From Marsupella aquatica (lineage: Eukaryota; Plantae; Marchantiophyta), in contig OZ316899.1 in assembly GCA_973895155.1 (NCBI GenBank), positions 1,449,573-1,513,572 on the forward strand: a stretch of DNA of 64,000 bases. Reading direction: 5' to 3'. Numbering within the stretch: position 1 is the stretch's first letter; each line of letters starts with the position of its first letter. Below are positions 552 through 22,502 of this stretch, in pieces. The position numbers and the translations under genes are program-made. A model generated the notes under the pieces. It saw nothing but the letters and a program-made list of their open reading frames with translations. It did not search any database and was not told the origin of the DNA.

Positions 552-2874
552 CAGAAGCATTGCATAGTGACCTTAAAACACTTAAACTATCAATTGTTGC
601 GGAACACACTAAGGGGGACCTGCTTGATTATGTGGATGTAGAGGATGCACTTCATGCAGCGGAGTTAGAAGAAGCGCATTACGGCATAAGGCTTGCAAGG
701 GTGAGATGGTTGGGGGAAGGTGATGAGCCATCCAAATTTTGCAACAACCAGGGCTAAGCGCACGCGCGAGGCAATGGTGCGACTAGTAGTGGAGGATGGA
801 CAGGAGATTACTGACCGTGCTCGTATCATTATAGAATTAGTTAAGTGTTGTGAGGAGCTCTATGCTCCGATGGACGCATCTGGGTCAGAACAGGTGGACA
901 TCTTAAGAGCACGGCAGAAATTATTAGCCCATACGGAGGTGGCATTATCTACGGGAGAACTTGCCTGGCTGGAAGGACTCCCAAACGGGTTGGAAATAAA
1001 AGAAGTGCTATGGATGCTGCCCCAGGATAAAGCTCCGGGCCCGGACGGACTGACGGCTGAGGTGTACCGTGCTTGCTAGGACTTTGTTCAGGTGGATATG
1101 ATCCACATGGTACAAGAATTCTGGTTGACAGGTTGCATTGCAGCAAGGATTAAGGATAGAATAATCAAATTTATCCCTAAGAGGCCTGATAAGAGATTTC
1201 TGAAGGACTGGTGTCCTTTGACGATGCTTAATACTATATACAAGTTGATAGCTAAGATGCTGGCATTGAGGTTGAAGCTGATTCTGCCCAAATTGATAAG
1301 TCCGCAACAAACTGGATTTATTCTAGGCAGAAATATTCTAGAGAATATCTCCCTGGCCTGGCTTACTAGTGATTGGGTTAGGAATCGTAGACAAGAATCA
1401 CTTTTTTTATATAATTTAAAGGGGAAATCTATGAAACCCCACAGAAAGGGAAGAGTCAGTCACAATAGTTGAACCCAAGATCTATTAGTCACTACTTAAG
1501 TGAGCTACCACAAAGTCATGCCTCTCTGGGTTTAGGGTTTAGGGAATCACTTTTTTTGAAGCTGGAATTTGAAAAAGCATTTGACCGGGTGAACCACATG
1601 TACATCTGGGAAACGATGCATTTGCTTGGCATCAGTAGGCATTTTATTTCATTGGTGCGAGCTTTACTGGGGGATGCCACCTCATAGGTGTATGTAAATG
1701 GGATGCTTTTGAGAGACATTGGTCCGAGACGAGGCGTCCGGCAGGGCTGTCCACTATCACCATTACTTTTTGTAATATCTACCCAGCCCCTAATGGATTT
1801 TATGGATGAAGAGTTGGCAGGAGGCCGACTTATGGGGATACAAATCTCTGCGGTGCTTACGATATGCTATCGACTATTTGCTGACAATTTGGGAATGTTT
1901 ATTCCAGCTACTGAGATTGGCTTCCAACTAGCAACTGCTATATTGAATTGCTATGAAACTGCTACCGGAGCCAGGTTGAATTTACAAAAATTGGTGGTGA
2001 TTCCAATGGCAATGGAGAGTATGCCAGATTGGTTGAGGGCGACTGGCTATATGATCAGTGCTAGGGGAGAGCTACAAAAATATATGGGGGCTCCGCTAGG
2101 AATAGATCTAAAGACTTAACAGCTTCACCAGTTATGTCTGGATAAGATTGGTTCCAGACTCTCCTCATGGGCTAACAAGTTACTTTCATTCACTGGGAGA
2201 TCCCTTTTAGTTAGACATGTTCTACAAGCAATCCCAATTTACCACACTATGTTTCTGAAGGCCTCCACTGGACTGGCAAGAAAACTAACGGCACTGTGCA
2301 GGGACTTTCTATGGAGGTACAATCCGGAAGGGGGAAGGAAGGTTCCTTTGGTATCTTGGGCTAGAATGGCTTGGCCTCGAATGGAAGGTGGACTTGGGTT
2401 CAAGGATTTTAGGAGTCACTCAAATGCCTTGTTGTCGAAGTTGTCACACGTACGTTGGACTGTCCAACATCAGAATGGGCTCGCCTGTTTGAAGCTAACT
2501 TGAATCTGATAAGTTGGGAGAGCTACAAAGTGATATGCAAGAACCAATATACTTTTAAGGATAAATATGGTTGTGCACCTCACGTTTGCTGCAAGGACTA
2601 TCATATACGGGTGGATTATGGAGGGCCTGGGCTGAACTACGTTCTCACCTGATTTTTGTGCCCAAGGGGAGGATTCCAGGCAGATGGAGTATAGGGTACA
2701 CTTTACGATGCTTGAAAGGATGTCAAGCTTGGTCCAATGATGACTTTAGGATAGTAGTGGAGATATGTGGCAGGTTAGGAATAAAGTGCATGAATCTATG
2801 TCCTCACTCAATCACACCCCACACACTTAGCTATCAATTGTTGGACATGAGTGTGCATACCACACCACCAATAT
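552..2874 (+). mobile_element. Degenerate L1-like LINE, ORF2 reverse-transcriptase region
   Basis: Motifs seen in broken frames: KAPGPDG, LISPQQTGFILGRNILEN, LKLEFEKAFDRVNH, RGVRQGCPLSPLLF, LFADN, EGGLGFKD. Multiple stops and frameshifts. Confidence 0.9.
1409..1543. other. 135-bp insertion in the LINE, flanked by a 14-bp TSD and ending in telomeric repeats
   Basis: GAATCACTTTTTTT occurs at 1395-1408 and 1544-1557. Removing the insert and one copy restores RRQESLFLKLEFEKAFDRV. The insert ends ...CTGGG-TTTAGGG-TTTAGG(G). Confidence 0.85.
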
Positions 2875-2934
2875 AGTGGATCTGTGGAGTACTTTGGGAG
2901 TTCCACAGAGGATCAAAGGATCAAAGGATCAAAC

Positions 2935-5900
2935 GAGTCCACAGATCCACTGCATGCTAGAACCCAACAAAGGAAGGTAGATGCATGTCATCCTAACACC
3001 ATCTCCTTATCTGACTCATCATGCCATTTGGCTCGAGTCTCACCCTCCTGACTGGTACATGGATTGCGGCCCAATCCATCTGCATCCAAGTTCACTTTAC
3101 CAGGCCTATGCACCACCTGGAAATCATACTCCTGTAACAACAACGCCCATTGTGCAAGCTTCCCTGTAAACTTGTCACACTCCATTAACCATTTGAGAGG
3201 CTAATGATCAATGATCAAGGTGAAGGGGTTACCAAACAAGTAGCAACGGAAGTGTGCTACAGCCCACACTACTGCCAGACACTCTCCCTCATAAGAGCTA
3301 TACTTAGCCTCTGCTAAATTGTTTGATCTACTGGCATAAGCCACAACAAACTCATCCCCCTCATCATCCTTTTGAGTCAGCACTGCTCCAAGTCCTACTC
3401 CACTCCAATCAGTGTATAGCTAAAATGGTCTCCACGAAATGGGTCTTCTCAAAATAGGGGATGATGCCAATCTTTCTTTCAACTCCTAAAAGGCATGCTC
3501 CTTGTCATCACCCCAAATCCACTCTTGATCCAACTTAGTGAGTATGGTTAAAGGTTTAGCAAGTTGGCTAAATCCTTTAACGTACCTCTTGTAGTAGCTC
3601 GCCAATCCCAAGAATGCACAAACTCTACTCACATCGTAGGACAAGGAATCTATGTAATGACCTCCACCTTAGTCTACTGCACACCCAATCCCCCTAGGTA
3701 GATGGTGTGCCCAAATACTCAATCTGGTCTTGGAAGAACTCACACTTGCCAGGATGGAGTTTCAACCCATGTTCTCTCAATCTCTCCAACATAATCTGCA
3801 AGTGCTATTGATGTTCTTCCACAGTGGAAGAATAGACCAAAATATCATCAATGTAACATCTGACAAAATCCAAACCTGCAAGAATTTGATCCATGACTCT
3901 ATGGAATTCAGCTGGTGCATTTTTCAACCCAAATGGTAAGAACAACCACTGATACAAACGATCCTTGCCATACAAATCAATTCCCCAAAATACTATCTTG
4001 GACCTGTCAAAATGTTTGATTCAAAGTTGATGGTACCCTACCCTCAGATTCAATGAACTAAAAACCTTTGCATGCCCCATTGCATCAAAGATCTCCTCAG
4101 GTGTGGGCATGACATATCAATCAGATTTTGTCTAACGATTAATAGGTCGGTAATCACCACACATTTGCCTATTCGTGTAATTGCCATGCACACCCTTCTT
4201 GGCTGGCATCATTGTGGCAAATGCATACTCTCCGTATGAGATCTCCACCAAACCAGCCTCCAACAAATTCTAAGTTCTGCTATGAATCAAAGCTCTTTCC
4301 ATGTCATTGGAATGGTATGGTCTACAAAAGATTGACGCATCACTAGCCAATTCAATCTGAGTACCAAGGCCCTTCAATATCCCCAAATCCTTCATACCAA
4401 ATGCAAAAACAATTATAGTAACTCTTTAGGAATTGATGCATGCGATGTCTCTCCTCCCCTGTCAACTTAGAACCAATCTGTGGCTCCCAACTCTCCACAA
4501 AATCTTTGATGTCTTTTTGTAGGGTAGAAGAAATAGTTGATGATTGCTATTTAGCAGTAGTTTGAGCAGCTCCTTCCTACTCAACAATCTGTCCTGCCTT
4601 GGCCAATCCTGCCATAGGTTCATGGACTATCTGCTCGTCCTCAATTGTGGCCACTACTATCTCAGTAGGCCATGAGCTCACCAATGGATGATCTGTAACA
4701 CTAGCAGAGCGCATCCAAATTTTCTCTACTGCTCCCAAGCTGACAATCCAAGTCCAACAATTCAAATCCATGGCTTGGCCAAGGACCTGGCGATGTGAAC
4801 TCTCTAATACATATGCAACTACAGTTGTACCTGTGGAGAATCCCATCCGCTCTTTCTCATCAGCAGTGGACTCTACTAACTGTTGTAGAGCTGTATCCCA
4901 CACAAGTCCAGGGCCACATGCGCTGAAAGCATATGAAGCAAAGTGGCTCACAAAAGTGAGTAATGCACAATGTGGGCGCCCAACCACATTGACCATGGCC
5001 AATGGAGATCTGTCAGGCTGGGTCACACCCTATGAACGTCACCCTGGATCCAAAATATCATCCACTACCAAGGCTCGTGAGTGAGGAATGTTGTCAAATG
5101 CTCACTTCAACACCTCACCTGGTAACAAATTAGTCCACCACAAGCGTGGACGATGTGCAAGAGAACCCACATGTGCAGCATCCAATAACACAGCAGGTCC
5201 AATCCAAGACCTCACTTGATGAACATTGGCAACAATCCGCTGATGATGTTCACCCAAGAGTGACACATTCTCCAAAATGTAGGTTGGAGGCTGCGTGTGA
5301 TACAATTGGAGATGACGCAACACCCATAACATAACCCAAAATAATGCAGATTGTGGATCATGAAGTCCATGTCCAACTCCAGCTCTAGATTGGTCCTGAC
5401 ATGGCCAACCAACAATCACCAAATCAATAGGGCCAATGCAATCCAAATGATCCGCCCCCAACAATGAAATATCATTATGCAGTGCATGCTGATAGCCACA
5501 AACAACATCCACTGGCAATAACTATGGATAACGATCCACCAACATAGCCACATGGCACAATGAGACTCTCTGTGCTGTCTCATCTATCTTCACATACAAG
5601 TAACGACGCGCAGGAATTCTTGCCTGAAGAACAATAGCCAATCTAGTGCTAATCCCACCAAATAAATCCAACAAACAAATACCCTCCGGTGGATATTGCC
5701 ATGCAATGGGAGTTGTATCCAATGGTGAAAGAGCCATCGGCCCACCTGCAAGAGACTGCTCTGCTCCAAGTTGTGGTGTAAAAGTATGACACCATGCATC
5801 ATGTACCAATCGTACTGCTGTCTGTGGCAAGGCCTGGCTAGTGCCCCACACTGGTGGCACAACATTACCAATAGGTAACCCATGCATGACTTGCTCCTCA

Positions 5901-6246
5901 TGTGACTCCTCCATTGTTGAAACATCTATTGCATGTGCGTTACCCTCCATAAAATCATCAGGATCAGTGATCATACCATTGAATGTTGCCAAAGACAATG
6001 GTGTAGATTTAGGGCCTCCCACAGGTCCACTAAATTGCATTGGCAATCTGCTCAATCTAGCATCTCCTGATTGCCAATCAAGTCGGTATGAAATTGATTC
6101 ATCCCAAAAAATCAAGAATAAATCCCATGGGGTACAGTACTATACATCCCACCAACACATCATAGGACTCTGTCTTAGTCAAAATAGCTTGTGTCTGTAT
6201 GTGGGAGCTATCCTTCGCATGACCCTCCTAAATCCAAACAATAAGT
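2935..6246 (-). mobile_element. Ty3/Gypsy copy 1 (internal fragment): protease C-terminus - DNA methyltransferase - RT - RNase H
   Basis: RT N-terminus FCRPY...LLEAGLVEIS, RT LPFGLKNAPAEF...CYIDDIL and RNase H VVAYASRS...GECLAVVWAVAHFRCYL are all present. About 90% similar to copy 2 (18300-19980) where they overlap. Confidence 0.9.
4735..5680 (-). pseudogene. DNMT3-like C5 DNA cytosine methyltransferase domain inside Gypsy pol (frame intact, four in-frame stops)
   Basis: Motifs in canonical order: I ICLLDLFGGIST; IV IDLVIVGWPCQDQSRAG; VI YILENV; VIII LDAAHVGSLAHRPRLWWTNL; IX EKERMGFSTGTT; X HRQVLGQAMD. ORFs 5522-6115, 5102-5518 and 4577-5026 share one frame. Confidence 0.9.
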
Positions 6247-6278
6247 TGTGAAAGCTTGTGTGGACACAAGGTGTGATA

Positions 6279-6957
6279 AGAACCTGCCAGTTAAGCGCTC
6301 GCGGCCAGAAATAGCCCCGGGATGGGTGACCTTGTACTTCATCTTGCGCTCGCGACTCAAAATAGTTCCAGGATGGGTGACCTCGCAATTTGCCTTATGC
6401 GTGCACAAACAAAAGTTGTTGGGCTCAGAAATGGCAACATTTGCGACTCGGAAGTGGCAACTTCCTTCACAAAAATGCCATCCAATAGCACACACAATTT
6501 GGCAACATCGGCCCTCAGTCCCTTCACAAAAAATGCAGCTTCGGGATCATCGACGATTCATGATTGTTGATAATTCACTATTGCACCTCCATTGTCGGTG
6601 CCACTATGAATCCAACAACATTTGTGAATGTTTCTTCCTGAAAACAACAAATCTATGCAGGAACATAGTCAAACATCCCCAATTGGGTTTCGCAGATCAA
6701 CAATCTGCTTTCAGAGTTGGCAACATCCAAAATTGCGTGATCAATCTGATTGAGGCTTCGAGGCAACTCGTGGTTACTCGGGATGAGGGGCATGAGGGCG
6801 GAGTAGGGGTAGGTGGGCCAGCAAGCCAGCTTGCTGGTACGTGAGGAGAATTGCAAGTGCTACCATTTTGGAGTGGCACATTTGGTGCATAATGACAAGT
6901 GAGAGGTCACCCATCCCAAAGCTATTCCTCCCCTCATGCGCTTAACTAGCAAGTTCC
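6279..6957. mobile_element. 679-bp non-autonomous TIR element with TA target duplication
   Basis: Imperfect ~55-bp TIRs (AGAACCTGCCAGTTAAGCGC...GGATGGGTGACCT and AGGTCACCCATCC...GCGCTTAACTAGCAAGTTCC). TA at 6277-6278 and 6958-6959. Confidence 0.7.
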
Positions 6958-8205
6958 TATGTGGTGCATTGTACATGCTTCCTTCCACACTTGGTGTCCA
7001 AGGAATGAGGCCCTAGGGGTTTTATGCACTTTTGAATTCATCTAGATACTTTGTTTTAGCTAGTTTGCGATGGATTCTTGAATATTTGACGCGGGATTCT
7101 TGAGGCCTATTATGAAGGCCCTACATTGAACTATATGCACATTATTTTCATGTATTTCTGATTGATTGGTGTGGAGAGTTGTGGTAAATCCTCTTCTTGT
7201 TGTTGGATACTCTTCACACATGCTTCTTGTTTATGCGCCATGTTGGTTTGGCGTGAGCGCTTGATTCTATAGGAGTGATCCGGGTTTGCAACCGGACATT
7301 CTAGTTGTGCTACGTATTTCTCTCCTGGTGATGTTCACTAGTAGAAATACCCCCTATTTTTGACCATAAAATACGACTGACTATGACTAAAATCGGTCAT
7401 CTATGACATTAAACACTAACGTCGTTCTTGCAACTAGTAGTCGTAAAAGTGGTGACTTGGATTGACTTAGTCATATTATTGACTAGTGTCAATAGTCTTT
7501 TTAGTGACTAGAGGCTCAAGTATTTAGATCTATACATCAGTCAAACATAAGTGTTTAGAATGACTTAGTTCGAGTCATATAGGGTTTTCCATGAGTGATT
7601 GGTAACACTGATTTGACCGCACTAGTTTCCGTAGACAATGATGTCATTCATATTCGAGACTAAGTCATTCATGCCACAAAAGCACCAATCCAACTAACAA
7701 TGGCATAATAACAGAGTAAAAATATGAGCAATCCATCAAAAAATAGAGTATACTTGAGGATTGAGAGAGAGAGAATTCTGCAGCAGAGAAGATGATGGTG
7801 AGCAAAGACAAACAAACAGAGTACTGACAAAGTGGAGAGAGACACACGGATGGAGAGAGAGCAAGGAGAGAATTAAGCAAGGAGAAAATTCTGCTCAGTG
7901 TTGAAGTAGTCAAACCAAAGCTGGTACAGACGTGCGAGAAGACCCAGGACTCTAAGATTGGACACTCGATTGCTAATCCTGAAAGATTGTGTAGAATAAA
8001 AGTGGACAATTGTTGGGCTAGCATTTTCACAGTTGAATAAAGGAATTCACAAGTCAAAGAACCCAATAGAACTTAGTTGTAGAGTAGCATATTGAAGCAA
8101 ACATGCGAGTCTACAAGCAGCAAATTAAAATATTGGCAATGGCAGCACAAACGCCCGACCCTGAGACTGTTGGGTATTTACTCTTACGTCTAGGTTAGGT
8201 ATGAC

Positions 8206-8384
8206 GTGGTTGGTACAACAACGTGGGTTGGTACAACTACGTGGTTAGGTACAACTACGTGGTTAGGTACAACTACGTGATTAGGTACAACTACGTGATT
8301 AGGTACAACTACGTGATTAGGTACAACTATGTGGTTAGGTACAACTATGTGGTTAGGTACAACTATGTGGTTAGGTACAACTAT
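8206..8384 (+). repeat. 18-bp tandem array (GTGGTTAGGTACAACTAC) in the 5' LTR U3, 10 units
   Basis: Units counted directly. The 3' LTR has 9, which explains the 475 vs 457 bp LTR lengths. Confidence 0.95.
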
Positions 8385-9158
8385 GTTGCACACTATATCA
8401 TAAGAGGCATGTGTGCTTGGAGAGGTAGAACCAAGGCTCATTGTTATGGAGCCACTTGAGAGATAGGGAGAGCTTACACTGTGGAGACTCGGTATAGCCG
8501 ACGGGCTTAGAGTTTAGTAAAGCTCTCTTGTGTGTTCCCGTGGACGTAGCCTCAAGGAGGTGAACCACGTATCTCTTGTGTCGACTATTATGCGTTGGAT
8601 GGTTCATGGGCTTGCCGTTGCGATCGTCGTCTATGCTCAACAATTGGTATCAGAGCATGCTTGGGAGGTGACGTGTGTTCGTGACGGGATTTCATGACGG
8701 TTTTTCCAGCGTTGAGTGTTGGTGGATTTTCCAGAGTTCCATCGCATGGAACTTGGAGTTTATGGGCTCAACGGATAGATCAGGGCAAGAGCTTTCTAAC
8801 GGTGTGAAGAAATCGTTGAACGGAGCTCGTGGTGCAGAGAGATCTAAGTTTTCGTCGTTCTGGATTTTGTGAAGAAAGTTGGCAATCGACTCGGAGGGAG
8901 AAGCGTCAAGTGTTTTGACTCAACGGAGAGATTGAGGCAAGACGATTGTTTTTGAGTCCGGGATTGGCTCTTTGATGCAAAGAGGAAGGCTAAGCAAAAT
9001 CAATTACCTTGTTGGACTTGGTGACGGCACCAAGTGCAATTGATCAACATTCGTTGTTGACAAGTATTGGACTCCTAGCTTTGTGGGCTACGCGGCGGTG
9101 TTGAGTTTCGAGTTTTTTGAGAAGTTGTGAAAAACAACATTTTTTGTGACTTTCTCAT

Positions 9159-10193
9159 ATGAGTGATTCGGAGGAGTTTTTCGAAGACGTGGAACTTGAA
9201 GCACGAGGATCACCGCGGAGGTTTCAGGGGCAGAGAGAGGAGCAGGAGGAAGAGCACGTGACACCGATACCATCACTGGTGCGGCGTGTGGTGGAGGAAG
9301 CAGTACTACTACCGGAGCTCACGGTAAAGAAGAAGATGGGGACTTTCAAGCTTGGGGGACCCAAGTATGAAGTGACAAAGTATGATGGGCGCTCTGACTA
9401 CTTGCTATGGGAGAAGCAGGTGAAGGGAGTGCTTTATGCGTCAGGGATGGGCCAACTGCTGAGCCCTCGTGAAGACGATGTTGATGAGAAACAATAGGAC
9501 CGCATGCAGGAGCAGGGAGTGTGGTGTGTTACACTCTATCTCATGCCTCCCATCATCAAGCAGTTAGGTGCACATAAGGATTGCATGTCCTTGTTTGCGG
9601 AATTGCAGAGCAAGTATCACCGCAAGGAGTTGTCGAACCGGCTCTACACTTCCTACAAACTGATGAGTTTCAGGATGAAGGAATCTGGTACGAAGTTGCA
9701 AGACCATGTGGATGCTTTCAACGACATGGTCGTTGACTTGGAAAACCTTGGGGAGACTTTGAATGATGAGACGAAGGCTCTGCAGCTTCTTAGTTCATTG
9801 CCTCCATCTTACCAGTCCCTATCACGAGTGTTGTTGCATCGTGATAGGGATACCATTTCATACAATGACGTGGTAAGTTCTCTGCTTAGTGATGATCTTC
9901 AGCAGAAGATGCACATCACGTCACAGCCTTCATCATCTGGTGCTGCCCTCAATGTTAACCGTGGGAGGAGTATGCAGCGACCAACTGGGGACCGTAGAAC
10001 CCAGTTTAGATCTAAATCCAGATCTAAGTCCAAGGGTAAATCCCCTCAGAGGAGGCAGGTGACATGTTGGAAGTGCAACCAAGTTGGACACTTCAAGCGA
10101 GACTGTAAGGGAAAGGCAGCGGAAACTTCATCGGCAAATGTGGCTAGGGCTGATGGAGAAGCTGATTTACTCAATGATGAGTATGTTTTATGA
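9159..10193 (+). CDS. gag: Copia A gag (one premature TAG at 9495-9497)
   Basis: KYDGRSDYLLWEKQV, UBN2-type capsid region, CWKCNQVGHFKRDC zinc knuckle. Confidence 0.9.
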
Positions 10194-13100
10194 AGCCGGG
10201 GGTATGCCCTGTGCACGTCATCTAGGAGAGCAGATGATGTGTGGATTCTTGATTGTGCTTGCTCTTTTCATATTTGTTACATTCGTGAGTTTTTCAGTTC
10301 TTACTCTGTTTCAAACGGTTCAGTTCTGATGGGAAATGATCACTCCTGTCAAATTGAGGGAATTGGGTCTGTGAAGATTCAAATGTTTGATGGCGCTGTG
10401 CGCATAGTGTCCGGAGTCAGGTATGTACCTGGCATGCGTAAGAATCTGATTTCACTCGGTGTGTTGGATTCAAATGGTCATCAATGGAGCGTTATTGATG
10501 GTGAACTTCAAGTCAGGTCGGGAGAGACAGTGATTTTGAAGGGGAGTAGACAAAAGAATTTGTATGTGTTACAGGGCAATACTGTATGTGGAGAGGCCAA
10601 TGTAACCAAGTCTCACGAGGAGATGACTCAACTGTGGCATTCACGGCTAGGCCACATGAGTGAGAAGGGTTTGGCTATCTTACGGAAGAATGGACTCATT
10701 TCTGATTTGCAATCTTGTAAATTAGAGTTTTGTGAGCATTGCATTCTTGGAAAGCAGCATCGTCGTGCTTTTGGTGTTGGAACTCATCGTTCCAAAGCGG
10801 TTCTTGAGTACATACATAGTGACGTGTGGGGTCCATCCCCGACTCCCTCACACTCTGGAAAGTTGTACTATATATCATTTATTGATGATTACTCAAGATT
10901 TGTGTGGATTTATTTCATGACGCATAAGTCTGATGTCTTGTCCATTTTTAAGAAGTGGAAGGCCCAGGTGGAGAATCAGACTGGAAACACGATCAAGTGT
11001 TTGGATACAAGGGTGAAGAGTCTGAGGTCAGACAACGGCGGGGAGTACACTTCAATGGAATTTGAAGAGTACTGTTCAGAACAGGGGATAACTCGCCATC
11101 TCACCACAGTTTATACTCCGCAGCAGAATGGTGTCGCTGAGAGGCTCAATCGGACACTGTTGGAGCGGTCACGGAGTATGTTGAGCCAATCAGGTTTACC
11201 ACAAGAATTTTGGGCAGAAGCTGTCAATACCGCAGCTTATTTGGTAAATCTTTCTCCTTCTAGTGCTATCAATTTCAAAACGCCGTTTGAGATGCGCTAT
11301 AAGCGGCAAGCAGACTATCATGGCTTGGTAATTTTTGGAAGTGATGCATATGCTCTCACACCAAAGCAGAATAGGACCAAGTTGGATCCTACCTCCAGGA
11401 AATGTGTTTTTCTTGGGTACCAGAGTGGTGTGAAAGCCTATAGGCTATGGGATCCTATTGCCTGTAAGCTCGTTGTCAGTAGGGATGTTTCCTTCAATGA
11501 ATCCAGATTATTGAAGGAGGGGGAGAATACTCAGGTCTCCCGTACTGACAAAAGAAAATCTCCTATCCCGGATCTCGTTGAGGGGGAGATTGGTTATGAG
11601 GTGCATGACCGGAGAGAAGGAGTTGCTCCAATTATGGAGCTGGTTCCTGTGCCAGAGGAACCAGAGGAGTTTGTTGATGCTGGTGAGCAGCAAGTGGATG
11701 CTGTTGAGCTTCAAATTGTACCAGCACACGCAGATCAACCGGAGTCATCGGCTAGAAGAACATCTGGTCGCACTGTACGCGCTCCATCAAGGTATGGACA
11801 GTGGGTTGATTCATCTCAACTGCAAGAGGATGATTTTACAGCTGATGATGAGGGTGATGCGTTAATTTTGGAAGAAGGAGAACCTTCTTCATTTCATGAG
11901 GCAAGTGCTTCAAAGGAGAAGCAAAAGTGGACTGCAGCAATGCAAACAGAGATGCAGTCACTAAAGGACAACAAAACTTGGGAGCTTGTTAAGCTGCCTA
12001 AGGGTCAGCAAGTGGTGGACAGCAAGTGGATTTACAAGCTGAAGGATAATTCCATAGGAGGTGGATCGAAGGTCTACAAGGCTAGATTGGTAGCAAAGGG
12101 ATTCACACAAGAGAAAGGTGTGGATTACAATGAGGTCTTCTCACCAGTTGCTAAGTACTCTACAATACGACTATTGTGTGTACTTGTTGTAATGTTTGGT
12201 CTGCTCCTAGATCAGATGGATGTTGTCACAGCTTTCCTCTATGGCACATTGGAAGAGGTGATCTTCATGAGACAACCGCTAGGTTTTGTGAAGAGAGGAC
12301 AGGAGGAATTGGTTTGCAGATTGCTGAAATCCTTGTATGGGTTGAAGCAGTCACCAAGACAGTGGAACAAGCGGTTTGACGATTGGATTCGGTCACAAGG
12401 TTTTCACAGAAGTGTATTTGACCCTTGTGTGTATTTGAAACCGGTGAAGAATGTTGTCTTTGGGTTCATTGTTTTAGTACTTTATGTGGATGACATGCTA
12501 ATTGCAGCCAAGGATAGGTCTGAGATTGTTAAGCTCAAGGCACTGCTTAGTGCAGAGTTTAAGATGAAGGACTTAGGGCCAGCTAAGAGGATTTTGGGTA
12601 TGGAGATCACTAGGGACTTGGAGGCTGGCAAGCTATGGTTGACGCAGAGCAGTTATGCGAGGAAGGTAATTGCAAGGTTCAACATGGAGAATAGCAAGCC
12701 AGTAAGTACCCCGTTGGCTCCACACTTCAAGTTATCATCAGCGTTCTGTCCTACGGATGACACAGAGAAGGGGTTGATGTCAAAGGTTCCATATGACAAG
12801 GCAGTGGGGAGTCTCATGTATTTGATGACTTGCACTAGACCTGATCTTGCCATGGCTATGGGCAAGGTGAGCAGGTACATGTCGAATCCAGGGAAGGTAC
12901 ACTGGGAAGCAGTGAAGTGGATTATCAGGTACTTGAAGGGTACCGTGGATCATGGTCTTTTATTTGATGCGAATGCAAAGAATGCTAGATCATTGATTGG
13001 CTATGTAGATTCTGACTATGGACAAGATTTGGACCGAAGGAGATCAACAACAGGATACGTGTTCACACTTGGCGGTGGATGCATAAGTTGGAGGTCTACT

Positions 13101-13466
13101 TTGCAGAAGTGTATTGCTCAGTCTACTACAGAAGCGGAGTATGTTGCAGCTGCGGAAGCAGCAAAGGAAGCGATTTGGTTGGATAGACTTATCACTGAAA
13201 TGGGATTGCCACAGGGGAATGTGAAGCTCCATTGTGATAGTCAAAGTGCGCTCCACCTTGCTGTGAACCAGGTGATGGACAGCAGAGTGAAGCACATTGA
13301 CGTCAGGTACCATTTTATCAGGCAGGCTGTGTCTGATAAATTGTTTGAGCTAGTCAAGATTGATGGTAAACTCAACCCGGCTGACGCATTTACCAAAGTG
13401 ATTCCTTTGGAGAGTTTCTCTAGACACCGTGACGTATTGCAGATTTTGCAATTGCATCACAAGTAG
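10194..13466 (+). CDS. pol: Copia A pol (protease, GAG-pre-integrase, integrase, RT, RNase H), open frame
   Basis: WILDC, LWHSRLGH, HSDVWGP, LRSDNGGEY, YKARLVAKG, LYVDDML, GYVDSD. In frame with gag after the TGA at 10191-10193. Confidence 0.95.
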   Translation, partial: SRGYALCTSSRRADDVWILDCACSFHICYIREFFSSYSVSNGSVLMGNDHSCQIEGIGSVKIQMFDGAVRIVSGVRYVPGMRKNLISLGVLDSNGHQWSVIDGELQVRSGETVILKGSRQKNLYVLQGNTVCGEANVTKSHEEMTQLWHSRLGHMSEKGLAILRKNGLISDLQSCKLEFCEHCILGKQHRRAFGVGTHRSKAVLEYIHSDVWGPSPTPSHSGKLYYISFIDDYSRFVWIYFMTHKSDVLSIFKKWKAQVENQTGNTIKCLDTRVKSLRSDNGGEYTSMEFEEYCSEQGITRHLTTVYTPQQNGVAERLNRTLLERSRSMLSQSGLPQEFWAEAVNTAAYLVNLSPSSAINFKTPFEMRYKRQADYHGLVIFGSDAYALTPKQNRTKLDPTSRKCVFLGYQSGVKAYRLWDPIACKLVVSRDVSFNESRLLKEGENTQVSRTDKRKSPIPDLVEGEIGYEVHDRREGVAPIMELVPVPEEPEEFVDAGEQQVDAVELQIVPAHADQPESSARRTSGRTVRAPSRYGQWVDSSQLQEDDFTADDEGDALILEEGEPSSFHEASASKEKQKWTAAMQTEMQSLKDNKTWELVKLPKGQQVVDSKWIYKLKDNSIGGGSKVYKARLVAKGFTQEKGVDYNEVFSPVAKYSTIRLLCVLVVMFGLLLDQMDVVTAFLYGTLEEVIFMRQPLGFVKRGQEELVCRLLKSLYGLKQSPRQWNKRFDDWIRSQGFHRSVFDPCVYLKPVKNVVFGFIVLVLYVDDMLIAAKDRSEIVKLKALLSAEFKMKDLGPAKRILGMEITRDLEAGKLWLTQSSYARKVIARFNMENSKPVSTPLAPHFKLSSAFCPTDDTEKGLMSKVPYDKAVGSLMYLMTCTRPDLAMAMGKVSRYMSNPGKVHWEAVKWIIRYLKGTVDHGLLFDANAKNARSLIGYVDSDYGQDLDRRRSTTGYVFTLGGGCISWRSTLQKCIAQSTTEAEYVAAAEAAKEAIWLDRLITEMGLPQGNVKLHCDSQSALHLAVNQVMDSRVKHIDVRYHFIRQAVSDKLFELVKIDGKLNPADAFTKVIPLESFSRHRDVLQILQLHHK

Positions 13467-13695
13467 AGTTTTCTTAAACATTCATTGTAATTACTGATAT
13501 ATGCTCTTCCTCATTCCTATGTATTAGGCTACGGCTTAGTTCTGGTTTGCTCTAGTTAGAGAGGGAAACCGGTTTGGTTTCTGTCCAGAACTTCCCGCTG
13601 ATGGATCATATACATTGGCAGTATTACTCTCCCCTAGACCAGAGTCAAGGGGAAGATTGTTGGGTATTTACTCTTACGTCTAGGTTAGGTATGAC

Positions 13696-13856
13696 GTGGT
13701 TGGTACAACAACGTGGGTTGGTACAACTACGTGGTTAGGTACAACTACGTGGTTAGGTACAACTACGTGATTAGGTACAACTACGTGATTAGGTACAACT
13801 ATGTGATTAGGTACAACTATGTGGTTAGGTACAACTATGTGGTTAGGTACAACTAA
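13696..13856 (+). repeat. 18-bp tandem array in the 3' LTR, 9 units
   Basis: Same unit as 8206-8384. Confidence 0.95.
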
Positions 13857-15441
13857 GTTGCACACTATATCATAAGAGGCATGTGTGCTTGGAGAGGTAG
13901 AACCAAGGCTCATTGTTATGGAGCCACTTGAGAGATAGGGAGAGCTTACACTGTGGAGACTCGGTATAGCCGACGGGCTTAGAGTTCAGTAAAGCTCTCT
14001 TGTGTGTTCCCGTGGACGTAGCCTCAAGGAGGTGAACCACGTATCTCTTGTGTCGACTATTATGCGTTGGATGGTTCATGGGCTTGCCGTTGCGATCGTC
14101 GTCTATGCTCAACAGAGACCACCAATGAAGACAAAGCAATGACAATGCAGAGGGCTCTGAGTGATTGCAGACCTCAAGAGTTGAGAAACCCTGGAATGAT
14201 TTCTTTGTGCCTAGCTTGGCAAAAGAGAAAGCTCTCGAACGGGTGGAAAATTGATCTGCAAGTGCCACAGACAGAGTGTGGCTCATCAATTCTGTGGCTC
14301 ATCCGTTGTCCATGGAGGAGTACATTATAGAGTATCACATTTGACTAATGTCCTATACATGGAATACAGGACCGTTGAGTTGAAATCGTAGCTCAGCAAA
14401 GGCAAAGAAAAACCCCCCGCACCCCACCTTAGTTCTGCACAACACTTCCGCACACTAGAATACTAGTGTATAAGGATGGTGGGGATTCAAGCTTCACAGC
14501 CAAAGCAGAATGAAAGTGCCGACAATATACTTTGATCTACATTTCCATAGTGAAATCCAAGTTTGACCCCGGCCCCGACCTCAGATTGCTATAGTGATGG
14601 GCGTGCATAAGAGAGGGAGAGATTTTGTACGTACTTGAGGATCGCGAGTGAGAAAAATCTGCAGGAGAGAGGACAATGGAGAGCGGAGACGATGGACGAG
14701 CGAGACCGAGAGAGAGGGCAAGAGAGAGCGAGGAGAGAATTGAGCAAGAGAGGAAACCCTGTAGAACTCAGGGAACCCAGTAGAACTTAGCCCTACCGTA
14801 GCATATCAAAGAGAAAGAAAGCAAGGCAATAGCAGCAATTAGACCCTACCGAGAGACGGAGATGACCAGCACCGCAGCTCAACTTTGTAGAGGTGTTGGA
14901 TGACTACCATGACCACAGCAAGGCTTCGCGCAAGGCAAAAAGTAAGTCTAGGGCACATTTACGCATTGTCACTTTCTACCGAGAGCAAGCATTGTGATAG
15001 CAGACATGCAAAGCTCCATTCCAATGCTGCGCATGGCAAAGTCAGAGGTAAGTACTTACAAAGCAGATGGCGGAAGATGGACCCCCACACCACAAACTTA
15101 TGCCCCGACCCTAAAATAACTGACCGCAATGCCCCCGCAATGCCTTCGGGGAGCACTTGCTCTCGCACTTAGCACTCGACTGAAAATCGCTGCCGTTGCG
15201 CTTCAAGTGTGGTCGTAAACACTTCCGCCTTCCTAAAAGCTCTAGTAAGAGTGGTAGCGAGAAGAAATCCCGACACACTCCTCATTTGCTCCTCCTCCCT
15301 CCTTGATCAATCGACTATCGACTATCGATAGTCACCTCATTCGCTCCTCCTCCCCTTCCCTCCCCTCGCTAAACCCTCTCTGCTGACGAAGACCTTAAAC
15401 TTTCGCTCCCGCGCACAAGGGTGGAGAGTACTAATGTACTC

Positions 15442-15600
15442 AGCCAGTGACATGTAAGGGAGCCAGTTACATGCAAGGGGCTCATGTAACGGAGCCAATG
15501 ACATGTAAGGGGCTGATGTAAAGGACCCAATGACATGTAAGGGAGCCAGTGACATGCAAGGGGCTCATGTAAAGGAGCCAGTGACATGTAAGGGGCTCAC
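15442..15600. repeat. Minisatellite in the CACTA subterminal region (AGCCAGTGACATGTAAGGG-type units)
   Basis: Repeated GACATGTAAGGG and CTCATGTAAAGG blocks. Confidence 0.8.
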
Positions 15601-16261
15601 CTAATGGGGTACCTCTACTATTTGAGACTTTCTCACATTAAAAGCTTGAATGTTTGGCAATTGGTGATTAGCACTCACTCACATAAGTACTTAGCACTAA
15701 GACATTTGGCTTGGATAGTGGACCTGCCATTTTCCTTATGAAGGAGTCGCAACAAATGAGTGGATAGTTTGTAGAAGTGATACTTAAGACATATGTAGTG
15801 ATAACTCCCTAAACTTTCATAACCTTGTCACATTAGTCAATAGTGGTTTGGTCAAAAATAGGGGGTATTTCTACTAGTGGTTGGAGTGATGCCCAACACA
15901 CCATGGTGAGTGCTTGTGTTGCTGACAGGGACAGATTGCCCTTAGGGTTAGCATATAGATTAGGTTGGTCACCATGGATTCTTCTGGTGCTGTTGGGTTA
16001 CCCGATGGACGACGGACCGGTTTCACTCGGAGTGGGGCGCAGTTTTGGCCAACGACATTGGTAGCAGTCAACAGCACAGCTTCAGACAGTGATTCTGACG
16101 AGGACTTTGTGAGCAGTTCTCCTCGTCATCAGGTGATTGCACCTTTGTTGTGGGATATGGAAGAGATGTACGAGGCTACGAAGGGCCCACGATGATACTC
16201 TGGTGCAGTTGGCACAATTGATCTGGATGACTTCATCCAGGAGTTTGATACGTGGTGCGAT

Positions 16262-17596
16262 ATGCAGACATTGCATAATGCCACATTGTTTACCCCTTTC
16301 ATGGCATGGAAGGGATTATTTCAGCATTTGGAGGGGCCACCCATGGATGACTACCATGAGTTTTGGAAGGCTCATTTGGTTGAGATTGAGGCATGGAGGC
16401 AGCATTGGTCGCCTAATTCCGTGTCCATCACCTATGGCACTAGTGCGGCTGCCCAACCCATTGCCACAGATGTTGCTTCTTCTAGCAGCACTAGCCAGAG
16501 TGGCACACCATCCACCAGCAGCACTCTAGCAGCATCCACCACTACTCCTGCCGGTGTGATTGCGACAGGGACTGGAGCTGCGCCAACATTTAACCTTGTG
16601 GTGGAATTCTTTGAGGTACTGAAGCAGAACTATCAGGGTGTGAGAACTGATAAGTTGAAGGGTCTCCAGGAGTTTTAGCGCAAGACTGGAGAGAGTCTGC
16701 GTGAGGCATACACTTGTATGCGCAGATTGATCACTGTCACCAAGGAAGTGACAGAGGCTCAAGCAGTCCAGTTTTGGTATGCAATTCTGGATAGAGAGTT
16801 GCGACGCAGAGTGAGAGATGTCACTCTACTTAGGGATGCAGATCCCACATTAGCAGTTGTTTTTACCCTTTATGAGCGCATTGAGCTCAATATGGTGAAT
16901 GAGAAGGTGGTGACTTCCGGATTTGCCAAGGAAGCACCAAAGGCTGCATCTACATCCACACCACAGCCTACTACACAAAAGAGCCAGAGGGAGAAGCCTA
17001 CTGCACGAGAGTCTACCAGCCAGAGACCTGTACCCTCTTATGCTGGACAACAGTCAGGATATTGGACCTGTGGTGGGGATCATGGACAGAGATATTGCCC
17101 AGATCATAGAGGATCAGGGGGAGCATCAGCGCCTGATCAGCGACAGTGTGATCACTGTGGAGCTCCTGGACACAAGGATAGGTGTTTCTCACTCCATCCT
17201 GAGTTACGGATAGGAGGATCCCGTACACATGATCAGGGAAGAGGAGGAGGTAGAGGTGGTGGACGTGATCGTGGCATGCCACATGCAGGGAGACAGGGAG
17301 GTGACGCTGCCCTTGCTGTAACCATAGATCCAAAGGATGCTAAGATTGCTCAATTGGAGCAACAGCTAGCTGCCATGGCTACTTCCCAGGTGAGACCTAC
17401 TTCTGGTGATGGGGCATCTACATCCTATGGACCTTCCACATCCCATGGTCCTTCCATATCTTATGGAGCTGATGGAGACCTTGCCACCATGGGATTCATG
17501 TGTGGCACTGCACATATTGATGCATCAGTAGCTTTGACACGTGGGGCAGCCAAAGCTCTTGAGCCCCGAGGAGCAGTAGTGGAGCTAGATCCATAG
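16262..17596 (+). pseudogene. gag: Gypsy copy 2 gag with zinc-knuckle-like motifs, interrupted by a stop
   Basis: GESLREAYTCMRRLI-type capsid segment, TCGGDHGQRYC and CDHCGAPGHKDRC. Confidence 0.75.
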
Positions 17597-18059
17597 AGGG
17601 GGGATGCACGTCGGCAGACAAAGCTTCCTCAGTCTTTTACATTGTTAGAGACAGTTCAGACTGCCTCTATGAACCCGGTTCGGACAAACCCTGGCGTGGG
17701 TAAGTTGGCAGAATCAGGTAGTGATGCAGCAGGGATGACAGGTACCTTGCTGGGGGCGGCTACTGCCATGGTACGTGCCCCATTATTTTCAGCGACAGAC
17801 ATGCTGAACTTGGGAGTTGGTCTTGCAGAAGTGTTTAGATTGGCAGCTACACTCTATGAGGACACTCTAGTGGTTTCTTCCCATGCAAAAGCAGCTTGCA
17901 GTGTTGAAGCAGTGAAGGCCATGCCACCTACTGCTACTAGTGAGACATGGCATGCAACAACAGCGAGATTGGTGGATTTACCAGCACGCCCTGCATTTGA
18001 GAGGACTAGGTTTAAACCTAGTGTTGTGTCATTGGATAATTGAAGTGGTATCTTTTGAT

Positions 18060-21000
18060 TAGTTAGGCCTTCTGGGGCAATATACCAGCCAGAGAGAGTG
18101 TTACTGGATACTGGCGCTTAGCCCTTGATGTTGGGTAAGTCTGCCATACGTGGATTGGGATTGCATCCAGAGGATTTGGAGGATTGTCCCTTTCCCATTT
18201 AGACTTCATTGGGGGGACCTACACCTACACAACACATTACCAGGAGACCTCTTGATTTGAGGATTCAGGAAGGTCATACCATAGATAGCTCACAGATATA
18301 GGTGCGAGCTATTTTGACTAAGGCAGAGTCATATGATGTGTTGGTGGGATGTACAGTGCTCTACCCCATGGGATTTATTCTTGATTTTTGGGAGGAATCA
18401 GTGTCATATAGACCTGATTGGCAGTCAGGAGATGCTCGATTGAGAAAATTGTCAGTGAGATTTAGTGGACCTGTGGGAGGCCCTAAATCCACACCATTGT
18501 CTTTGGCAGCATTCAGTGGTCTAATTGCTGGACCTGATGATTTGATTGAGGGTAATGCGCATGCAGCAGATGTTCCACCATTGGAGGAGTCTCATGAGGA
18601 GCACATCATGCGAGGATTACCTGTTGGCAGTGTTGTGCCACCAGTGTGGGGCACTGCACAGGCCTTACCATAGGCAACAGCATGATTGGTACATGATGCA
18701 TGGCGTCATGCTTTTACACCACAGTCAGGACCAGAGCAGTCTCTTGCTGATGGACCTGTGACTCTTTCACCATTGGATACCACTCCTATTGCTTGGCAAT
18801 ATCCACTGGAGGGTATTTGTTTGTTGGATCTTTTTGGTGGGATTAGCACTAGATTGGCTGTTATTCTTCAAGCAGGAATTCCTATGCGTTGTTATTTGTA
18901 TGTGGAGACAGATGAGACAGCACTGAGGGTCTCATTGCGACATGTGGCTATGTTGGTGGATAGATATCTACAATTGTTGCTAGTGGATGCTATTTGTGGT
19001 GCTGACAGGTCCAAGACAGCATTGGATCGAATCCTTGCAGGTTTGGATTTTGTCAAATGTTATATTGATGATATTTTGGTCTATTCTTCTACTGTGGAAG
19101 AACATTAGCAGCACTTGCAGATTGTGTTTGAGAGATTGAGAGCACATGGGTTGAAGCTCCATCCTAGCAAGTGTAAATTTTTCCAAGACCAGATTGAGTA
19201 TTTGGGCCACACTATATACCCAGGGGGATTGGGTGTACAACAAACTAAAGTGGAGGCCATTACACAGATTCCTTGTCCTACTGATGTGAGTAGAGTTCGT
19301 GCATTCTTGGGATTGGCAAGCTACTACAGGAGGTATGTTAAAGGATTTAGCCAGCTTGCTAAACCTTTGACCATACTCACTAAGTTGGATCATGAATGGA
19401 TTTGGGGTGATGACCAAGAGCATGCCTTTCAGGAGTTGAAGCAAAGGTTGGCATCATCCCCTATTTTGAGAAGACCCATTTCAGGCAGACCATTTCAGCT
19501 ACACACTGATTGGAGTGGAGTAGGACTTGGAGCAGTGTTGACTCAAAAGGATGATGAGGGGAATGAGTTTGTTGTGGCTTATGCCAGTAGATCAAACAAT
19601 TTAGCAGAGGCTAAGTATAGCTCGTATGAAGGAGAGTGTTTGGCAGTAGTGTGGGCTGTTGCACACTTTCGTTGCTACTTGTTTGGTAACCCCTTCACCT
19701 TCATCACTGATCATCAGCCTCTTAAGTGGTTAATGGAGTGTGACAAGTTTACAAGGAAGCTTGCACGATGGGCATTGTTGTTACAGGAGTATGATTTCTA
19801 GGTGGTGCATAGGCCTGGAAAAGTGAACTTGGATGCAAATGGATTAAGCCGCAATCCATGTACCAGTCAGTAGGATGAGACTGGAGCCAGATGGCATGAT
19901 GAGTCAGATAAGGAGATGGTGCTAGGATGGCATGCATCTGCCTTTCTTTGTTGGGTGCTAGCATACAGTGGATCTGTGGACTCTACCTCATTGGATGGAG
20001 TGGATGAGGAGTCTTCAGATGTGGATGTTGGTGAGGTAACTTTTGGACAGCAAGATATTCACAATGATGTGAGAGTGTTGGAATATCTGCGTAGTGGTTC
20101 TATTGTTGGCAGTGTTGATGCCAAAGAACGTGACAGGGTTCTACAGAGAGCCAAGAGGTTTCGATGGGAGGGAAACCATGTCTTGAGAGTACTGCATGAT
20201 GGTAGGGTGTTGGTGGTACCAAAACCATCACAACGAGTACATTTGGTGCGACATGCACATGAGAAGTTGGGGCACTTTGGTGTGAAGCGCACTTATAGTT
20301 TGCTGCAAACACAGTATTGGTGGCGTGGTATGCACATTCATGTCCAGCAATTGATAGCTAAGTGTGTGGTATGTGATAGAGTGAGAGCATCATTTAATGC
20401 TCCCACTCCCCAGTTGCACCCGTTGCCGATCATGGGTTTGGGATATCGTTGGAGTTTGGATTTTTCTGGTCCATTACCTCTTACCCAACGTCATAATCGA
20501 TATGTTTTGGTCATGGTGGAGCACTTCTCCAAGTGGATTGAGCCAGTGGCGTTGCCCGATAAAGCTAGTGGAGGAGTTGCTGCTACATTTTTGGATTGTG
20601 CACTCAGTCATTTTGGAGCACCAGCTGAGGCGTTGACTGATCAGGGAACTGAGTTCCGTGGAGAGTTTGAGAGTTTGTGTGAACAAGCTCTGATTGATCA
20701 TCGTACTACCTCTCGTGATCATCCTAAGGCAGATGGATTAGCTGAGAGAGTTGTGCAAACTATGAAGAGAGGATTGCACAAGTATGGCTTGCAGGTTGGT
20801 CATTTGGGAGATTGGGATCTCCAGCTACCTTGGTTAGCTATGGGCTACCGTTTCAGTCAGCAAGCATCACTTGCATCCTTCTCACCTTACTTTTTGCTCT
20901 ATGGTAGAGAGCCAGATTTGCCAGCAGCTATTCGTCGTGATGTTGCACCAATTGTGAACTTGGATGATCCTGATGTTTGGATCAAGGTGTGTTCAAAGAG

Positions 21001-21496
21001 AGCACGGGTATTTTAGAGAGTGATGCCCATGGCTTTTGACAACCTTGCCATTGCCCAACATCGTGATACTTTGAGGTATGCCACTATTCGTGGAGGAGGT
21101 TACCGTGCAAGCATTCGATGATTTCATCCTGGTGATTATGTTTATTTGCAGCAGACAGCACCCATGACACTTGATGTGACCGCATGCCGGACAATCTTAC
21201 GTGTGCGTGAAGTGTTGCCTTCTGGTGTCCTGATGTTGGAGGGACGCGATGGTATGGTTTGGAAGGATCATGTGCGCAACTGTGCATCATGTCACCTTCC
21301 CAACATTGATGGTATAATAGATCCAAGCTTGGCACATGTTCGTGCTGGCTTGAAATGTATGTTGTGTGGATCTGCTCAGGGAGCAGCTACTATGTTGATT
21401 TGTGATAAGTGTTCTAGAGGATGACACATGCCATGTTTGACACCACCATTGCAAGTGATTCCTAGTGGATCATGGTTGTGTCCTCGGTGTCAGTGA
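18060..21496 (+). pseudogene. pol: Gypsy copy 2 pol: protease - MTase N-terminus (internally deleted) - RT C-terminus - RNase H - integrase - PHD
   Basis: VLLDTGA at about 18100; LLDLFGGIST at about 18820; YIDD at about 19060; HTDWS...AYASRS; HAHEKLGH...CVVC, WSLDFSGP, LTDQGTEF, AERVV. Many in-frame stops. Confidence 0.92.
21356..21496 (+). CDS. PHD finger (C4-H-C3) at the integrase C-terminus
   Basis: CMLCGSAQGAATMLICDKCSRG*HMPCLTPPLQVIPSGSWLCPRCQ-stop. The internal * (TGA 21422-21424) is most simply a TGG-to-TGA change. Confidence 0.9.
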
Positions 21497-21671
21497 AGCC
21501 GACTAGTTATCATTTGTGTTCTCTTGGCAGATATGGATTGCAGGTAGGTGATCGATGGGGCTCACTTGCACCCGGCCTCCTGATCTTCACACCTAAAAAG
21601 GTGTATATCAACCTTGTAGAACTCATGGCTAGCTAGAGTTAGGGGACCTTACTCCCAGCTAGGGGGGCAAT

Positions 21672-22502
21672 TGTGGGTTTTGGACATGTGTGGACATGAG
21701 TTCCACTTGTATTCCATTCTCTTGTGTTTGTGATGTGGCAGTGTGACTATGTTTGGATGTATGTGACAAGTGATGTATGTTGTGTAGCGATGTGTATGTG
21801 CACGACAGCTGTCACACCATTCTAGGTAGTGTTAGAGTGTATCGTACTATCTAGATCCGTATATTTGGTATGTGTGCTATATGAGCTGATAAGGTTCCGT
21901 TAGGTTTGTGTGAGAGGGTACTTCTCACTTGTGAGGCATTGAAAGGTCATCTTTCAATGTTGAGCCTTGGAGAGGGGAGCTTGTGTGATGGCTATGGTGG
22001 TTGAGAGCTCTCTCTCTATGTAGCATGGATTCCTTGAGTGCAAGGTGCATTGGCTCGACATACATGTGTGATCGGATCGGACAGGATTGAGTGCGTATTG
22101 TTGGCGTCGATCGTTGTGCCGATTGTATTGAGATTATTGTGGGTTTTGGACATGTGTGGACATGAGTTCCACTTGTATTCCATTCTCTTGTGTTTGTGAT
22201 GTGGTAGTGTGACTATGTTTGGATGTATGTGACAAGCGATGTATGTTGTGTAGCGATGTATATGCGCACGACATATGTCAAGCCAACGCACCTTGCACTC
22301 AAGGAATCCACGCTACATAGAAGGAGCTCTCAGCCACCATAGCCACCACACAAGTTTCCCTCTCCAAGGCTCAACAGTGAAAGGTAACCTTTCAATGCCT
22401 CACAAACGTGAACTGAACCCTATCGGCTCGTATAGCACACATATGAAACATATAAACCTAGATAGCATGATACACTCTAATACTACCTAGAATGGTGTGA
22501 CA
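21672..22502. repeat. Rearranged LTR-like block: A-B(+)-C-A-B(-)
   Basis: A = 21672-21807 and 22138-22273 (near identical). B = 21810-22060 and an inverted, more diverged copy at 22276-22502, both with TGTCA...GACA ends. Confidence 0.8.

Follow-up and report, generated by a model that had tools for sequence, protein, structure and literature searches.

A DNMT3-like cytosine methyltransferase domain, followed by a conserved stop codon, in a Ty3/gypsy retrotransposon family of land plants

What cytosine methyltransferases do in the retrotransposons that carry them has been an open question since 2018, as the hosts known so far lend themselves poorly to manipulation. Here we analyse a 64,000-nucleotide stretch of the Marsupella aquatica genome (assembly GCA_973895155.1, contig OZ316899.1, positions 1,449,573 to 1,513,572), hereafter the window, in which a first-pass annotation made from the letters alone had noticed a Gypsy retrotransposon with a DNMT3-like methyltransferase inside its pol region. 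Judged from sequence and predicted structure, copy 1 of this element encodes a DNMT3-like C5 cytosine methyltransferase (DNMT) domain of a Ty3/gypsy element; the domain is a family trait in land plants (liverworts and peat mosses) and not a one-off insertion; and it closes a first open reading frame (ORF1) of Gag, protease and DNMT, with reverse transcriptase (RT), RNase H (RH), integrase (IN) and a PHD finger downstream of a conserved stop.

A DNMT3-like domain shared by liverworts and peat mosses

Six-frame translation recovered all six diagnostic motifs that had been reported, unpermuted and in a single frame, which lies on the minus strand: LDLFGG (5671-5654), GWPCQD (5410-5393), ENV (5272-5264), AHRPRLWWTNL (5158-5126), ERMGF (4852-4838) and VLGQAMD (4786-4766). 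With X at its stops, the copy 1 frame passed the hidden Markov model check that had been proposed for it, matching PF00145 at E 8.4e-10 (39 bits, cut-off 22). A profile built from 18 aligned sequences (the window domain and 17 relatives) ranked DNMT3A/B/C at the top of the solved structures (DNMT3A E 2.5e-21), followed by DRM2 (7e-10) and then bacterial HhaI (1e-5), and the structure that AlphaFold predicted for a naturally intact relative (pLDDT 89, pTM 0.88) had DNMT3A as its best Foldseek match (E 1.3e-18). Motifs I, IV, VI, VIII, IX and X in unpermuted order together with a DNMT3 fold agree with membership of the DNMT3 clade, in line with the character first ascribed to the domain, and the fold predicted for the intact relative is that of a complete DNMT3 catalytic domain. 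The catalytic Cys, the ENV Glu and the motif VIII arginines do not vary in the family alignment, and an insertion of ~40 residues before motif IV is family-specific. Motif IV reads EC, not the canonical PC, before Gln in 35 of 142 matches; proteins of this type include P0129, P0148, P0158, P0174 and their kin, a Closterium protein among them.

Both window copies are dead. Copy 1 is so because of four premature stops in the domain (5524, 5104, 5041 and 5032), an Arg in motif I, RT frameshifts and truncation at both ends. The Arg replaces the second conserved glycine of motif I in both window copies and in 0 of 67 other pattern-matching proteins. Copy 2, on the plus strand at ~16157-22273, retains gag, protease, integrase and the PHD finger and carries a deletion running from ~19003 into RT; its methyltransferase N-terminus sits at the position previously noted, with LDLFGG at 18824 and the rest lost. 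In copy 1 the domain lies, intronless as described, between a protease half upstream and RT/RH downstream (Table 1). The first-pass annotation had not stated the strand, the four premature stops or the motif I Arg, and had missed the split repeats and the PHD finger.

The class of the element follows several lines. The order is protease-RT-RH-IN with a DDE integrase (rve and H2C2 matches), as in Ty3/gypsy (Metaviridae) elements, and the nearest solved RT structure is that of Ty3. Domain scans of the element proteins gave no match to any tyrosine recombinase family, which sets the element apart from DIRS, PAT and Ngaro, and copy 2 showed a PHD finger and no chromodomain match, which sets it apart from the chromovirus Tcn1.

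That the domain belongs to a family found in land plants had been part of the original claim, and relatives in assemblies of Marchantia, Calypogeia, Riccia and Sphagnum bear it out. Database searches returned 22 longer relatives and 110 of similar length, including Calypogeia fissa (63%), many Marchantia polymorpha genes (51-65%), M. paleacea, Riccia sorocarpa and five Sphagnum species, as well as Closterium and Cymbomonas. Contigs of 5-49 Mb carry several of the named bryophyte matches, whose assemblies are chromosome-scale or have long contigs; vascular plants and Klebsormidium are absent from the named matches of these searches, which are a minority of all matches. We further collected 80 metagenome loci through a motif IV pattern, and wherever the contig is long enough these show the order Gag-protease-DNMT-RT-RH-IN-PHD. 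In four sequencing runs, contigs covered all 30 bins from protease to RH (1053-5295 pieces per run), and in run X3 a few low-depth joints skip the domain (for example 3963-5666), resembling the copy 2 deletion. A search of sequencing runs listed no RNA run containing the element, a result that has no bearing on its expression. Two properties of the 80 loci limit what they show: relatives without DNMT are invisible to sampling by motif IV, and many loci are near-copies of one lineage, so that the independent lineages number about six or seven.

The ratio of non-synonymous to synonymous substitution rates (dN/dS) of DNMT between lineages is 0.18-0.21 (~0.19), with near-saturated dS and inflated by post-insertion decay, and that of RT-RH is 0.07-0.18; purifying selection on DNMT between lineages is shown at the level of these sequences. 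Among close copies dN/dS rises to 0.44-0.82, in keeping with decay after insertion. These high values, with two broken copies in the window, are what would be expected of a neutral passenger or a one-off capture of a host gene in this genome. We regard that explanation as very improbable and, from the comparisons made here, as largely refuted already: the domain holds the same position across liverworts and Sphagnum, has relatives in Closterium, Cymbomonas and Haematococcus, and is constrained between lineages, whereas high values among close copies are expected from post-insertion decay.

The origin of the domain appears old. A FastTree phylogeny of 121 domains (redundancy-reduced from 196 near-complete ones, with 11 phage enzymes added), with no plant DNMT3, DRM or Klebsormidium sequences among them, grouped the window domain with those of Calypogeia, Marchantia and Sphagnum at support 99. 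The references for DNMT3 in it are a single animal DNMT3 and a single Symbiodinium sequence, both on long branches, with phage methyltransferases about equally distant by identity. A phage origin is unsupported, the nearest phage or viral enzymes being 22-34% identical. The wider clade is large, with 269 clusters (50% identity) at E < 1e-30 among 1.84 billion representatives, two domain orders and members in chlorophyte algae. RT or RH precedes DNMT in 78 of 313 proteins (RT-RH-DNMT-IN-PHD; named members Cymbomonas and Haematococcus), gag or protease precedes it with no RT in the same ORF in 52, and in 15 a single predicted ORF has DNMT ahead of RT, with Marchantia or Sphagnum gene models accounting for six of them. 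Proteins of the RT-RH-DNMT-IN-PHD order group as a single clade both in the DNMT tree (98) and in an RT tree built without named Ty3 references (100). Because both trees split the two orders alike, they suggest, with weak roots, one old capture of DNMT and a later move of the domain. One relative of the order RH-DNMT-IN-PHD, P0149, has an additional C-terminal PTM/DIR17-like Tudor domain.

A conserved stop between methyltransferase and reverse transcriptase

Of the original placement 'inside pol', the position between protease and RT stands, but the domain closes ORF1, and a conserved in-frame stop precedes RT-RH-IN-PHD. The comparison uses the 56 of 80 loci that reach the end of DNMT and at least 400 bases beyond, reduced to 42, window included, after collapse at 97% identity. 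In 39 of 41 ungapped junctions a stop occupies the homologous codon, and no other of the 193 codons exceeds 0.19; the exceptions are a deleted locus (L014) and a misaligned one (L076, which has TGA CAA TCA in the DNMT frame), and in L008, gapped in the alignment, the stop is present behind an insertion. Beyond the loci, the Marchantia, Calypogeia and P0002 ORFs terminate 78-100 residues past motif X. P0002, the closest relative of the window domain (77% identical), ends exactly at the window position, and it is the one sequence from which the state of the stop in further Marsupella copies is read.

The sequence after the stop mostly follows a CAR-YY pattern. The window reads TAG CAA TCA; 32 of the 42 read TAR CAA CCC, and these match named Sphagnum proteins; L017 and L026 have CAA CCA, and the distant L074 and L079 have TAA CAA TTA and TAG CAA TTA. 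In the same DNA, CARYY follows 0.8% and CARYYA 0.25% of 35,787 stop triplets. CAR-YYA is the read-through signal of tobacco mosaic virus (TMV), ~10% efficient in vivo (PMC2754532), and stop-codon read-through is known for MuLV (murine leukaemia virus) and SIRE1 (PMC2194720). Read-through of the conserved stop is likely to be how RT-RH-IN-PHD is made.

Several observations weigh against this. The commonest context, CAA CCC, has no final A of the TMV consensus; L050, with TAG TAG CCA, departs from CAR-YY; and an AUG follows the stop in L050 and, two codons on, in the Sphagnum-type lineage, where re-initiation is therefore possible. RT-IN might instead come from splicing, re-initiation or an internal promoter, the stop being a mere end of ORF1, an account we think unlikely. 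Marchantia gene models P0007, P0011 and P0013 do join DNMT to RT, and the gag-pol junction of Tca2 shows that such signals may mislead (PMC2194720). The Marchantia models, however, make the join at differing places, the reading frame across the stop is preserved despite a linker whose length differs between lineages, the YY positions vary among pyrimidines only, and the window, L026, L074 and L079 all lack an AUG in the stretch from the stop to the conserved WEP motif. With a downstream AUG in two lineages and none in these four, read-through remains the best reading. We found no report of read-through for this family in the literature openly readable as text.

With DNMT in ORF1 ahead of a read-through stop, the enzyme would be present at capsid (Gag) abundance, and the stop thereby predicts a definite and unusual stoichiometry. 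Leakage of ~10%, as in TMV, would quite probably set DNMT equal in number to Gag and RT/IN at about one tenth of that, with DNMT probably freed by the protease inside the particle.

Split repeats and a palindromic junction

Two complete identical terminal long terminal repeats (LTRs), as expected of Ty3/gypsy elements, are not present; the repeats are split instead. An A-internal-B-A-B layout occurs in L041, L048, L065, L013 and, as far as its contig reaches, L005, and copy 2 in the window has B-A-B at its 3' end; 12 unique 3' ends stop after B, giving an A-internal-B form. Integrated copies start with TGTCA (the start of A) and end with CGACA (the end of B), a polypurine tract directly precedes B1, and target-site duplications (TSDs) of 4 bp and varied sequence flank 6 of 6 loci tested (five exact, one with one mismatch) and, by eye, L032. 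TG...CA termini, a TSD of 4-6 bp and a polypurine tract agree with Ty3/gypsy. A Phygy-type NCGN insertion preference fits 0 of 7 TSDs, and a fixed B1/B2 difference seen in three copies was gone once more copies were compared. A hairpin in repeat A (window 21933-21970; repeat A of L048) keeps its structure and differs in sequence between the window and Sphagnum-type lineages; the predicted start of transcription overlaps with it. Copy 2 is followed immediately by a partial inverted repeat A (22274-22502), which suggests that it landed in the repeat A of a different member of the family, perhaps copy 1.

The internal B|A junction forms a palindrome, GACA-GC-TGTC, common to the window and the Sphagnum-type lineage, and a staggered cut there would give the observed TG...CA ends with loss of the GC. 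In the Sphagnum-type lineage, a 14-base stretch after A1 is complementary to sequence ~28 bases below a TATA-like box in A. This duplex resembles Tf1-type self-priming, Tf1 being an example of self-primed reverse transcription. Given such a layout, reverse transcription should yield a B+A repeat unit, yet the copies start inside that unit. We infer that the DDE integrase inserts a circular form of the element, a route long rejected as the normal retroviral one. Biochemical precedent exists in the foamy virus integrase, which cleaves palindromic circle junctions (PMC1180852). The 5' ends weigh against a simple form of this route: A-B-A occurs at 0 of 17 unique 5' ends against ~29% expected (p ~0.003), and that expectation comes from simple end-joining of linear cDNA; the symmetric 2-LTR-circle model is rejected on this count. 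In a DIRS/PAT-like route the circle is splinted by B1-A2. By analogy, such a splint would explain the missing A-B-A, with A-internal-B arising through B-to-B template switching or recombination. It is rather likely, on balance, that self-primed reverse transcription ends in a circle whose CA-GC-TG B|A junction is cut by the integrase to leave TG...CA ends.

Table 1. Features of the two element copies in the window
Feature	Position	Strand	Remarks
DNMT3-like C5 cytosine methyltransferase, copy 1	4735..5680	-	motifs I-X unpermuted, four premature stops
In-frame stop TAG followed by CAA TCA (CAR-YYA context), end of ORF1, copy 1	4541..4549	-	family-conserved; TAG is 4549-4547 and parts the domain from RT
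Aspartic protease, C-terminal half, copy 1	6032..6224	-	gag and active site lost upstream
RT and RH, copy 1	2991..4215	-	frameshifted
Integrase fragment, copy 1	2733..2873	-	truncated
gag region and protease, copy 2	16157..18463	+	LLDTGA at 18101
Methyltransferase N-terminus, copy 2	18686..19003	+	internal deletion joins N-terminus to mid-RT; LDLFGG at 18824
Remaining RT (YIDD), RH and DDE integrase (WSLDFS, LTDQG, GLAER), copy 2	19013..21112	+	
C-terminal PHD finger, copy 2	21353..21493	+	PF00628, E 1.4e-10
Polypurine tract, copy 2	21659..21670	+	immediately 5' of repeat B1
Split repeat B1, copy 2	21671..21807	+	ends in CACGACA
Palindromic B|A junction GACA-GC-TGTC, copy 2	21804..21813	.	putative integrase cut site on the circle; mirrors the ends of integrated copies head to tail
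Split repeat A2, copy 2	21810..22136	+	starts with TGTCA
Split repeat B2, copy 2	22137..22273	+	right end of copy 2

The surroundings of the two copies are themselves rich in mobile DNA. Copy 1 breaks off at a ~690-bp insertion with imperfect terminal inverted repeats (6276-6960; hAT-like by eye) and is truncated on its other side at a decayed LINE-like reverse transcriptase region on the plus strand (560-2700; by eye). Between the copies lies a CACTA-type element (7336-15880) with terminal inverted repeats and a 3-bp GTT duplication, in which a young Ty1/copia element is nested (8208-14115; LTRs ~98% alike and containing an 18-bp tandem array). The gag of this Ty1/copia stops at a TGA (10191-10193) directly in frame with a 1090-codon pol, and a related copia copy (28360-29058) also terminates its gag at that residue, so that a second site of read-through may lie here. 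Short interstitial TTTAGGG telomere-type repeats occur at 1531 and 23951, as fits a green plant.

What the enzyme may do, and how the family compares

How these parts might work together is a matter of graded confidence. Whether DNMT, being abundant, would modify new cDNA or its circle ahead of insertion or in the course of it, with CG as the most likely target, leaving a copy that resembles host repeat DNA, with the PHD finger likely steering insertion to H3K4-unmethylated chromatin, seems to us evenly balanced. We give equal weight for and against to the statement that DNMT, packaged as part of Gag-protease-DNMT ahead of a stop that is likely read through, methylates cDNA of its own element and that this cDNA goes on to integrate as a circle. 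The full combination in one land-plant Ty3 lineage, namely an active DNMT at Gag stoichiometry via a TMV-like stop, a methylated circular cDNA, and a palindrome-cutting DDE integrase aimed by PHD, is a tentative proposal, more doubtful than either.

Methylation of the element's own cDNA finds mixed support. SymbioDIRS-Dnmt3 enzymes performed de novo CG methylation in yeast (PMC5890265). Against it, the KnitGypsy-Dnmt3 enzyme of Klebsormidium gave no methylation there, a result its authors called inconclusive (PMC5890265), and CpG depletion leaves no consistent footprint: the observed/expected ratio is 0.25 and 0.30 in the window copies versus 0.40-0.48 in neighbouring Copia and LINE (long interspersed nuclear element) sequences, but 0.56-0.78, not low, in L005, L048 and L050, so we rejected such depletion as a mark of self-methylation.

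The PHD finger bears on a different target. The solved PHD fingers nearest to that of copy 2 are those of CHD4, DPF3, PHF21A, ATXR5 and KDM5B; PHF21A, CHD4 and KDM5B PHD1 are readers of unmethylated H3K4. PHD also accompanies DNMT in either domain order, in green algae as in bryophytes. On these grounds DNMT could act on chromatin and not on cDNA, at the target site or on resident copies (self-limitation or site marking), delivered with the PHD-bearing integrase much as ADD guides DNMT3A, an option that de Mendoza et al. list (PMC5890265). The stop, however, ties DNMT to Gag and uncouples it from IN-PHD, which suits action in the particle or on cDNA, and we consider a chromatin target improbable.

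Slightly less credible still is that selection retains the domain for some role that is non-catalytic or directed at RNA: it might bind or shield nucleic acid within the particle, or determine the cut at the B|A junction, which includes CG and CAG/CTG sites. A Gag-level amount is far above the need for catalysis on one cDNA, the Klebsormidium enzyme was inactive in yeast (PMC5890265), motif IV has EC for PC in a quarter or so of matches, and the integrated forms are asymmetric. Set against all of these are the invariant catalytic residues and a predicted fold that is complete.

If the full combination is true, this would be a retroelement that sets its epigenetic state itself, ahead of insertion, and uses a circle to integrate, and it would be testable in Marchantia. 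The M. polymorpha reference genome holds intact ORFs of the family annotated as 'hypothetical proteins', Mp4g09160 and Mp8g17980 having naturally intact domains, and with CRISPR, methylation mutants and methylomes at hand, an algal puzzle becomes tractable in a laboratory plant. From the repeat layout one would predict that a DDE integrase works on a circular intermediate. Elements of this kind would likely escape LTR finders that require paired LTRs, and through their DNMT domains they may distort the number of DNA methyltransferases counted in bryophytes.

Gypsy elements with a Dnmt3-like domain and DIRS-like repeats are already known (de Mendoza 2018, PMC5890265), and 'streptophyte' Gypsy-DNMT3 elements have been named without species (PMC12344493; bioRxiv 10.64898/2026.05.21.726589). 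In the literature openly readable as text we found no report of a land-plant Gypsy-DNMT3, and the readable parts of 10.1101/363937, PMC11982613, PMC6317226 and PMC4157794 hold no land-plant example. As far as we have searched, what is new here is the land-plant range, the Gag-level placement behind a putatively leaky stop, the pairing with PHD and the anatomy of the circle junction.

The closest known element is KnitGypsy-Dnmt3 of the alga Klebsormidium nitens (PMC5890265); that such retrotransposons had been published from Klebsormidium was correctly stated in the first-pass annotation. Both have Gypsy domains, an intronless unpermuted Dnmt3-related domain, a DIRS-like repeat layout and purifying selection on DNMT (Ka/Ks below ~0.2 there, 0.18-0.21 here). 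In KnitGypsy-Dnmt3, however, DNMT shares one ORF with RT and RH, whereas here the stop places it in the Gag-protease ORF; its host is an alga and the hosts here are land plants; and the PHD finger present here is not mentioned for it in the text and supplement text that we searched (PMC5890265). SymbioDIRS-Dnmt3 also combines a DNMT3-type domain with A-B-A-B repeats, but uses a tyrosine recombinase where we find a DDE integrase and variable 4-bp TSDs (PMC5890265). EpiLTRs of Cymbomonas and Euglena are likewise Ty3-like and combine a chromatin reader with a cytosine methyltransferase; the DNMT in them is sister to DNMT4 and accompanied by DAM and a chromodomain, and their authors set them apart from streptophyte Gypsy-DNMT3 (bioRxiv 10.64898/2026.05.21.726589). 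The chromovirus Tcn1 has a chromodomain after integrase and self-priming (PMC6317226); a self-priming-like duplex recurs here in the Sphagnum-type lineage, with PHD instead of the chromodomain. Among host enzymes (animal DNMT3A/B; plant DNMT3 and DRM), fold and motifs are closest to DNMT3A/B, but the element domain lacks both introns and PWWP/ADD, shows none of the rearrangement of DRM and carries its own insertion before motif IV. Finally, TMV, SIRE1 and MuLV share with this family a single in-frame stop, with a CAR-YYA-type context, that sets a protein ratio (PMC2754532, PMC2194720); unlike theirs, the stop described here comes after protease and methyltransferase, which would put the enzyme at the level of the capsid.

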